Shown: in pieces, positions 1 to 144 of the stretch | Position numbering within the stretch: position 1 is the stretch's first letter | Layout of the letters: the number at the start of each line of letters is the position of its first letter | Source: a virus | Lineage: Duplodnaviria; Heunggongvirae; Uroviricota; Caudoviricetes | Length of the DNA: 4,070 nucleotides | Direction: 5' to 3' (one strand) | Virus record (IMG/VR): IMGVR_UViG_2645727743_000017 | Notes under the pieces: generated by a model | The model's input: the letters and a program-made list of their open reading frames with translations, nothing else | Databases searched by the model: none | What the model was told of the DNA's origin: nothing | Translations under genes and position numbers: made by a program

Positions 1-44
1 GCCCGTTGACGGACCTCGGGGGAAAAACGTGTATTTTTAGTCAT
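1..44 (-). CDS. IS3-family transposase OrfA, N-terminal fragment (MTKNTRFSPEVRQR...), continues past the window start
   Basis: ATG at 44..42 (minus) preceded by a GAGG Shine-Dalgarno; the translated N-terminus matches the remembered IS629 OrfA start. Confidence 0.75.
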   Translation of the reverse strand, partial: MTKNTRFSPEVRQR

Positions 45-98
45 CCTGTTTACCTCTTTCTCAGGGAGTTTAGTCTCCAGGATTCCCGGGGCGGTTCA
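1..98 (-). mobile_element. Left end of an IS3-family insertion sequence (IS629-like), running off the window edge
   Basis: Minus strand from 98 downward reads TGAACCGCCCCGGGAATCCTGGAGACTAAACTCCCTGAGAAAGAGGTAAACAGGATGACT..., matching my recollection of the IS629/IS1203 terminal repeat and orfA leader. The sequence upstream of 98 is lambda gene O, so the boundary is sharp. Confidence 0.8.
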
Positions 99-144
99 CA
101 AAGTTACCTCTGCCGAAGTTGAGTATTTTTGCTGTATTTGTCAT
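99..144 (-). pseudogene. O: Replication initiation gene O, 5' fragment (15 codons, MTNTAKILNFGRGNF) interrupted by the IS
   Basis: ATG at 144..142 (minus) with AGGAG Shine-Dalgarno; the first 15 codons match lambda O. The frame then enters the IS and stops at 72..70. Confidence 0.8.

Follow-up and report, generated by a model that had tools for sequence, protein, structure and literature searches.

Background

IS629, with its isoforms IS1203 and IS3411, is the most abundant insertion sequence in enterohaemorrhagic Escherichia coli (EHEC). Within O157, 62% of IS629 copies are located in prophages or prophage-like elements, and target duplications of 3-4 bp were found at 21 of 47 sites (PMC3271280). 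Otherwise identical Stx2a phages vary mainly through the position of IS629, with roi, a methyltransferase gene and a lysozyme gene among those interrupted (PMC4587872).

Lesions of the early replication genes are known from lambda itself. An O amber mutant that retains 37 N-terminal residues is among the O nonsense mutants needing suppression or O in trans, O defects can be complemented in trans, and pO overlaps the N-terminal end of O (PMC6022878). Survivors of selection against the replicative killing caused by trapped lambda carried lesions in O and P, among them a spontaneous IS2 in P and a 7-bp frameshift deletion in O (PMC4926192, PMC6022878). Defective lambdoid prophages are rescued or mobilised by co-resident ones (PMC2669165).

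Here we describe a 4070-base stretch of DNA (the window; all positions refer to this whole stretch) in which the end of an IS629-type element adjoins the start of a lambda-type O gene. Very probably, the junction arose by transposition of a 1310-bp IS, a member of the IS629/IS1203 group, into the 5′ part of O in a lambdoid prophage.

The window and its prophage

The window corresponds to the immunity region of a lambdoid prophage, in the orientation reverse to that of the lambda map (Table 1). Its left edge lies inside the IS and its right edge cuts ral (4053-4070) 18 nt past the ral start. A repeat at one edge and a cut gene at the other would fit a window that is a whole short-read contig. 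When compared by megablast with 5,426 complete E. coli genomes, positions 99-4070 were matched at 100.0% in at least 11 genomes, and a base-by-base count against the prophage of strain PS1Thumoskin9 (L002) gave 0 mismatches over 3972 positions. Intact copies identical over these 3972 bases occur in human, giant panda, chicken, rabbit-farm and seawater isolates.

All eight genes outside O are intact over the ~4 kb of prophage covered. A first-pass annotation of this DNA had taken cI, cro, cII, N and the cargo genes to be intact, and each is indeed 100% identical to its intact, annotated counterpart in many genomes. The visible part of the prophage holds no stx. The cro-like regulator also matches HTH_23 (E=1.3e-6, 28.5 bits), and P22_Cro below its cut-off. 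Some gene callers start N further upstream, giving a 141-aa GTG-started ORF from 3357, and N is followed by a 45-aa DUF5484 ORF (3791-3928, + strand). We take the unit at 119-234 to be Po/oop, as in lambda, where pO overlaps the N-terminal end of O (PMC6022878). No Rfam family was found in the window at E≤0.1.

Table 1. Features of the window, with the strand and the basis of each assignment.
Feature	Position	Strand	Description and basis
IS left end, IS3 family, IS629/IS1203 group	1-98	-	First 98 nt; 98/98 identical to L001 14722-14819
orfA, 5′ end	1-44	-	ATG at 44, MTKNTRFSPEVRQR up to the window edge; identical to orfA of the full-length copy
O'::IS fusion frame	70-144	-	MTNTAKILNFGRGNF + VNRPGNPGD, stop TAA at 72-70; translation
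IRL TGAACCGCCCCGGGAATCCTGGAGA	74-98	-	22 of 25 positions match the IRR of the reference copy
O remnant	99-144	-	Codons 1-15 and first base of codon 16 (46 nt); identical to L002 O start
Predicted 3-bp target-site duplication	99-101	CAA on +, TTG in O orientation	One copy visible; predicted from five reference IS629-type insertions and PMC3271280
oop antisense RNA unit	119-234	+	Promoter TTGAGT-17-CATAAT 119-147, terminator 201-228 and T run; promoter/terminator scan
Shine-Dalgarno AGGAG of O	150-154	-	5 nt upstream of ATG; read directly
cII, intact	177-473	-	98 aa; PF05269 (Phage_CII) E=8e-34; annotated CII in relatives
nutR boxB, P22 type	539-553	-	Exact match (chance expectation 0); precedes the IS in the PR transcript
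cro-like HTH regulator, intact	580-807	-	75 aa; HTH_17 above Pfam cut-off; annotated CDS in relatives
cI-type repressor, intact	886-1593	+	235 aa; PF00717 (Peptidase_S24) and PF01381 (HTH_3); annotated in relatives
Cargo genes at the rex position, overlapping, intact	1691-2233, 2221-2997	+	180 aa and 258 aa (DUF1828); identical CDSs annotated in relatives
nutL boxB, P22 type	3307-3321	+	Exact match
Antiterminator N, intact	3441-3782	+	113 aa; PF25694 (N_peptide) E=5e-26

The insertion sequence

Read in reverse complement, the left end of the window is identical to the opening 98 nt of a full-length IS in E. coli ECO2947 (L001 13510-14819, NZ_CP046259.1), whose limits were set by comparing L001 with L002. 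This reference element is 1310 bp long, with terminal repeats TGAACCGCCCCGG.../...CCGGGGCGGTTCA, and is flanked by a 3-bp duplication, CAT. Its orfA encodes 108 aa beginning with MTKNTRFSPEVRQRA, and the 14 codons of it that are visible in the window are identical. Its orfB, for which the annotation gives a programmed frameshift, hits the IS3 transposase model NF033516 of NCBIfam (E=5e-93). Overall, the reference element is 95.4% identical to an O157:H7 copy annotated 'IS3-like element IS1203 family', and the 98 nt of the window show 3-4 mismatches to IS1203/IS629-type copies in seven other loci, two of them from O157:H7. The visible end thus carries the 5′-TG terminal repeat and the isoform-level identity of at least 95% by which membership of the IS629/IS1203 group is judged, and the proposal that an IS629-like, IS3-family left end occupies 1-98 is borne out.

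ECO2947 carries the same prophage type and the same IS variant, there inserted downstream of cI and ahead of the first cargo gene (window-equivalent 1601-1608). With the same variant at another site, it is evidently active in lineages that carry this prophage type.

The junction between the IS end and O

The intact O gene of L002 (7147-8046) encodes 299 aa beginning with MTNTAKILNFGRGNFAGQERNVADL; its origin-binding domain, Phage_rep_O (PF04492, E=5e-36), spans residues 22-115. The O remnant of the window is nucleotide-identical to this gene until homology breaks exactly at 99, where TTTG is followed by CCGGACAGGAG in L002 and by TGAACCGCCCCGGGAATCC in the window. In reading-frame terms, O ...GGT AAC TTT G continues with TGAACCGCCCCGGGAATCCTGGAGACTAAACT in the window and with CCGGACAGGAGCG in the intact gene; the break separates the first base of codon 16 (GCC) from the other two, and the junction falls after O nucleotide 46. 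The switch of sequence at 98|99 coincides exactly with the terminal nucleotide of the IS, and a junction at the terminal TG is what transposition makes. The IRL 13-mer occurs once in the window (86-98), against 0.04 expected in shuffles of the window. Matches of 98/98 and 3972/3972 on the two sides of the junction are not chance.

Gene order cro-cII-O' in the PR operon, a Shine-Dalgarno sequence of its own and an oop promoter lying over its 5′ end place the remnant at the position of a lambda-type O, and orfA of the IS is co-directional with O and the PR operon. Of the IS and O, the window shows one IS end and the first 46 nt of O, the other 854 nt of the intact gene having no counterpart in view. 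From the O start, the frame runs for 24 residues, 15 from O and nine from the IS, before a stop, and the Phage_rep_O domain is wholly absent. The first-pass annotation had placed an insertion in codon 16 of a lambda-type O with a Shine-Dalgarno AGGAG, with the IS terminus at 98 and the orfA start at 44; this proved exact, the AGGAG lying at 150-154 and the O ATG at 144. Alignment to IS629-type copies and to O identified 1-98 as an IS end, with no intact O-like frame continuing through it. The claim that O is inactivated is therefore well supported, as no full-length O can come from this locus, and we infer that the locus makes no functional O.

BLAST searches with the whole window, with 1-260 and with 1-150 did not find the exact junction in 5,426 complete E. 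coli genomes or in phage records. Exact patterns of 34 nt and 23 nt across the junction were absent from one-genome-per-species, viral and metagenome contigs, and a look-up of the 38-aa ORF that spans the junction found no record. Contigs found by look-up to encode an identical cII were only long ones with an intact O or other lesions. An apparent 100% match in ECO2947 (H1) was discarded as a joining artefact, since the IS lies elsewhere in that prophage and O is intact. Three single-piece alignments of ~91% identity across the junction (H121-H123) were likewise rejected, being IS copies in unrelated flanks and not in O.

In strain 135, the flank of an IS629-type left end outside O (L021 2599-2629) is identical to window 99-129 at 21 of 31 positions. 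Among thousands of IS sites such a likeness could arise by chance, or it could hint at a target preference.

Comparable IS629-type sites

The comparison set consisted of nine IS629-type sites in complete genomes: seven fall in O-type replication genes (L004 and L015-L020), one separates cII from a replication gene of another kind (L003) and one separates cI from the cargo genes (L001). Each of the nine elements measures exactly 1310 bp. Five sites show a 3-bp duplication (L001, L003, L017, L019 and L020). The other four (L004, L015, L016 and L018) have none, and there the rest of O is gone, often together with P through the nin region; deletions thus adjoin four of the seven O sites. At least 10 other complete genomes have an IS629-type element within O, at positions other than that of the window. 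The O insertions detected were all in the direction of O, a bias that the search method imposes.

Some of the O insertion sites cluster: L018 and L019 share one site, with L020 15 bp away, and L016 and L017 are 9 bp apart, in what is presumably the end of the iterons of a lambda-type ori. Independently of IS629, O and downstream genes have been lost beside an IS91-family (Y2) transposase in L013 (6298-8100, JAPWXC010000001.1).

Antitermination and cargo genes

N contains a P22-like arginine-rich motif, GNAKTRRHERRRKLAIERD. The two sequences identified as boxB match those of P22 nutR and nutL exactly. Together, the N motif and both P22-type boxB sequences indicate that the prophage combines P22-type antitermination with lambda-type O/P replication.

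The first cargo gene has a sub-threshold match to DUF6978, and the second carries DUF1828; neither matched any NCBIfam model. The pair weakly resembles the PADLOC candidate defence system PDC-M24, with its components in the correct order (A, E=1.5e-3; B, E=6e-7), and a literature search for functional work on the cargo-gene domains found none. The two genes may thus constitute an uncharacterised prophage-borne defence pair. Comparable pairs of a hypothetical gene and a DUF1828 gene follow a different repressor in L015 and L016.

Origin and age of the junction

A mis-assembly would also place IS sequence beside O, either as an IS read-through joined chimerically to the O start or as a contig end collapsed on a repeat. 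The window does begin inside a multicopy repeat, the junction had no counterpart in any collection searched, and in many assemblies this region sits on contigs of 2-5 kb. However, the join falls at the terminal nucleotide of the IS, where the IS end and O have no k-mer in common. Such an arrangement is what transposition predicts, whereas mis-assembly needs shared sequence, and we regard an artefact as the least probable of the explanations weighed here. A harder choice lies between a clean insertion and an IS end that marks an IS-mediated deletion or rearrangement, with the rest of O and possibly P, nin, Q and the lysis or structural genes missing or relocated, in which case the prophage would be a true remnant. 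Four of the nine comparable sites lack a duplication and border deletions, the O157 survey found duplications at fewer than half of its sites (PMC3271280), and L013, of the same prophage type, lost O next to its IS91-family transposase. Against this, the remaining five sites are clean insertions, and the lack of any difference from intact prophages across 3972 bp suggests that secondary events had little time to occur. Given the split among the nine sites and the O157 figure, clean insertion and IS-flanked deletion are roughly equally likely here, and we put a deletion or rearrangement slightly short of an even chance. A simple insertion would give a far junction reading ...GGGGCGGTTCA-TTG-CCGGACAGGAG, in which the right end of the IS leads into the remaining part of O.

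If the insertion is clean, O function might survive through transcription that runs through or starts from the IS, followed by re-initiation at an in-frame GTG, codon 22, to give an origin-binding O without residues 1-21. Past the break point (O nucleotide 47 onwards) the intact relatives read CCGGACAGGAGCGTAATGTGGCA, in which this GTG is preceded by AGGAG and a 6-nt spacer. The codon coincides with the start of the Phage_rep_O domain at residue 22, and the IS is oriented like PR, with nutR upstream. Yet the window shows only one IS end, and an overlapping out-of-frame ATG would compete with GTG22 for initiation. A search of the PDB found no solved structure of an O homologue against which to judge the role of residues 1-21. 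Overall, survival of O function appears highly improbable, though less so than an artefact.

The first-pass annotation had gone on to suggest that the pattern fits a cryptic or domesticated prophage, retained by the host for its immunity and cargo functions. On this reading, retention would be under selection and the loss of O part of the taming, for example as an escape from induction-linked or replicative killing. The IS2 and frameshift survivors of trapped lambda (PMC4926192, PMC6022878) show that such lesions can be selected, and the weak resemblance of the cargo pair to PDC-M24 also speaks for it. This part of the proposal is nevertheless not supported. Cryptic prophages are recognised by accumulated decay (several inactivating lesions, divergence from active relatives) alongside conserved genes that are retained, and by a lost ability to excise, replicate or form particles; here 0 of 3972 positions differ from intact relatives, which leaves no signature of age or of purifying selection. 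Moreover, one lesion is not a pattern, and a single fresh one gives no evidence of selection for retention. With N, the nut sites and the start of the PL arm intact, induction could still be lethal, and IS629 strikes prophages indiscriminately (PMC3271280, PMC4587872). Domestication is thus unlikely. Transposition of the IS into O remains the preferred explanation, and from the zero divergence outside the IS the event appears to be very recent.

Consequences for the prophage

The oop unit, cII, cro, cI, the operators, N and both boxB sequences are unaltered, the IS junction lying 20 bp from the oop -35. After loss of repressor, the prophage could not, by lambda genetics, be expected to fire its own origin, which lies inside O, while cI, cro, cII, oop, N with its nut sites and the two cargo genes would keep working. 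The analysis supports a prophage that would be replication-defective in cis, and this copy is probably replication-defective yet still immune. O could still come in trans from another lambdoid prophage in the same cell, if that prophage has the same O type (PMC6022878, PMC2669165).

As nutR is upstream of the IS and the IS runs parallel to PR, N-modified transcription could run through the IS to whatever lies beyond, and such read-through may still bring late-gene expression and host killing. Folding of the read-through RNA (window 160 to 1) gave no structure around the orfA start beyond that of shuffles (z=+0.83). More speculatively, SOS derepression might drive N-antiterminated transcription of orfA and a burst of IS629 transposition while the loss of O spares the host from origin firing, the combination being selected as a 'tamed prophage plus inducible IS'; or an O re-initiated at GTG22 might keep the phage alive. 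We consider this scenario very unlikely, more so than domestication alone.

Comparison with known systems

The closest counterparts are the IS629/IS1203/IS3411 insertions found in lambdoid prophages of E. coli, EHEC among them, which have the same terminal repeat, the same orfA start and the same habit of striking prophage genes. They differ in position, as insertion after O nucleotide 46 was seen in none of the genomes searched. The IS of the window is an isoform, distinct from the O157 type, its reference copy being 95.4% identical to the O157 IS1203. The ECO2947 prophage is identical in immunity region, cargo and N, and its IS matches the visible 98 nt without a difference; in contrast to the window, its IS lies between cI and cargo (duplication CAT) and its O is intact.

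For annotation, the short ORF at 70-144 is best described as a truncated O and the left end of the window as repeat DNA. EHEC strain typing makes use of IS629 site polymorphisms, and the present insertion could likewise serve as a strain-typing marker.

The RK- mutants of trapped lambda from Hayes's laboratory (P::IS2 and O frameshifts) and the O ambers resemble this locus in having an early O-P lesion with immunity intact, and in those systems an O of a few dozen residues is treated as non-functional (PMC4926192, PMC6022878). The RK- mutants, however, came from laboratory selection on prophage fragments that were non-excisable and temperature-inducible, and they involve a different IS, whereas the window bears no sign of selection. 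The locus adds one further data point on the recurrent hits of IS629-type elements in O/ori and has little significance beyond annotation. The kind of event is already known: this is one more allele made by a known element in a known class of target, and only its exact site had no record in the collections that were searched. Insertion of IS629 into lambdoid prophages, O included, is routine, and the present one is an ordinary example of a well-documented class of prophage-disabling mutation.
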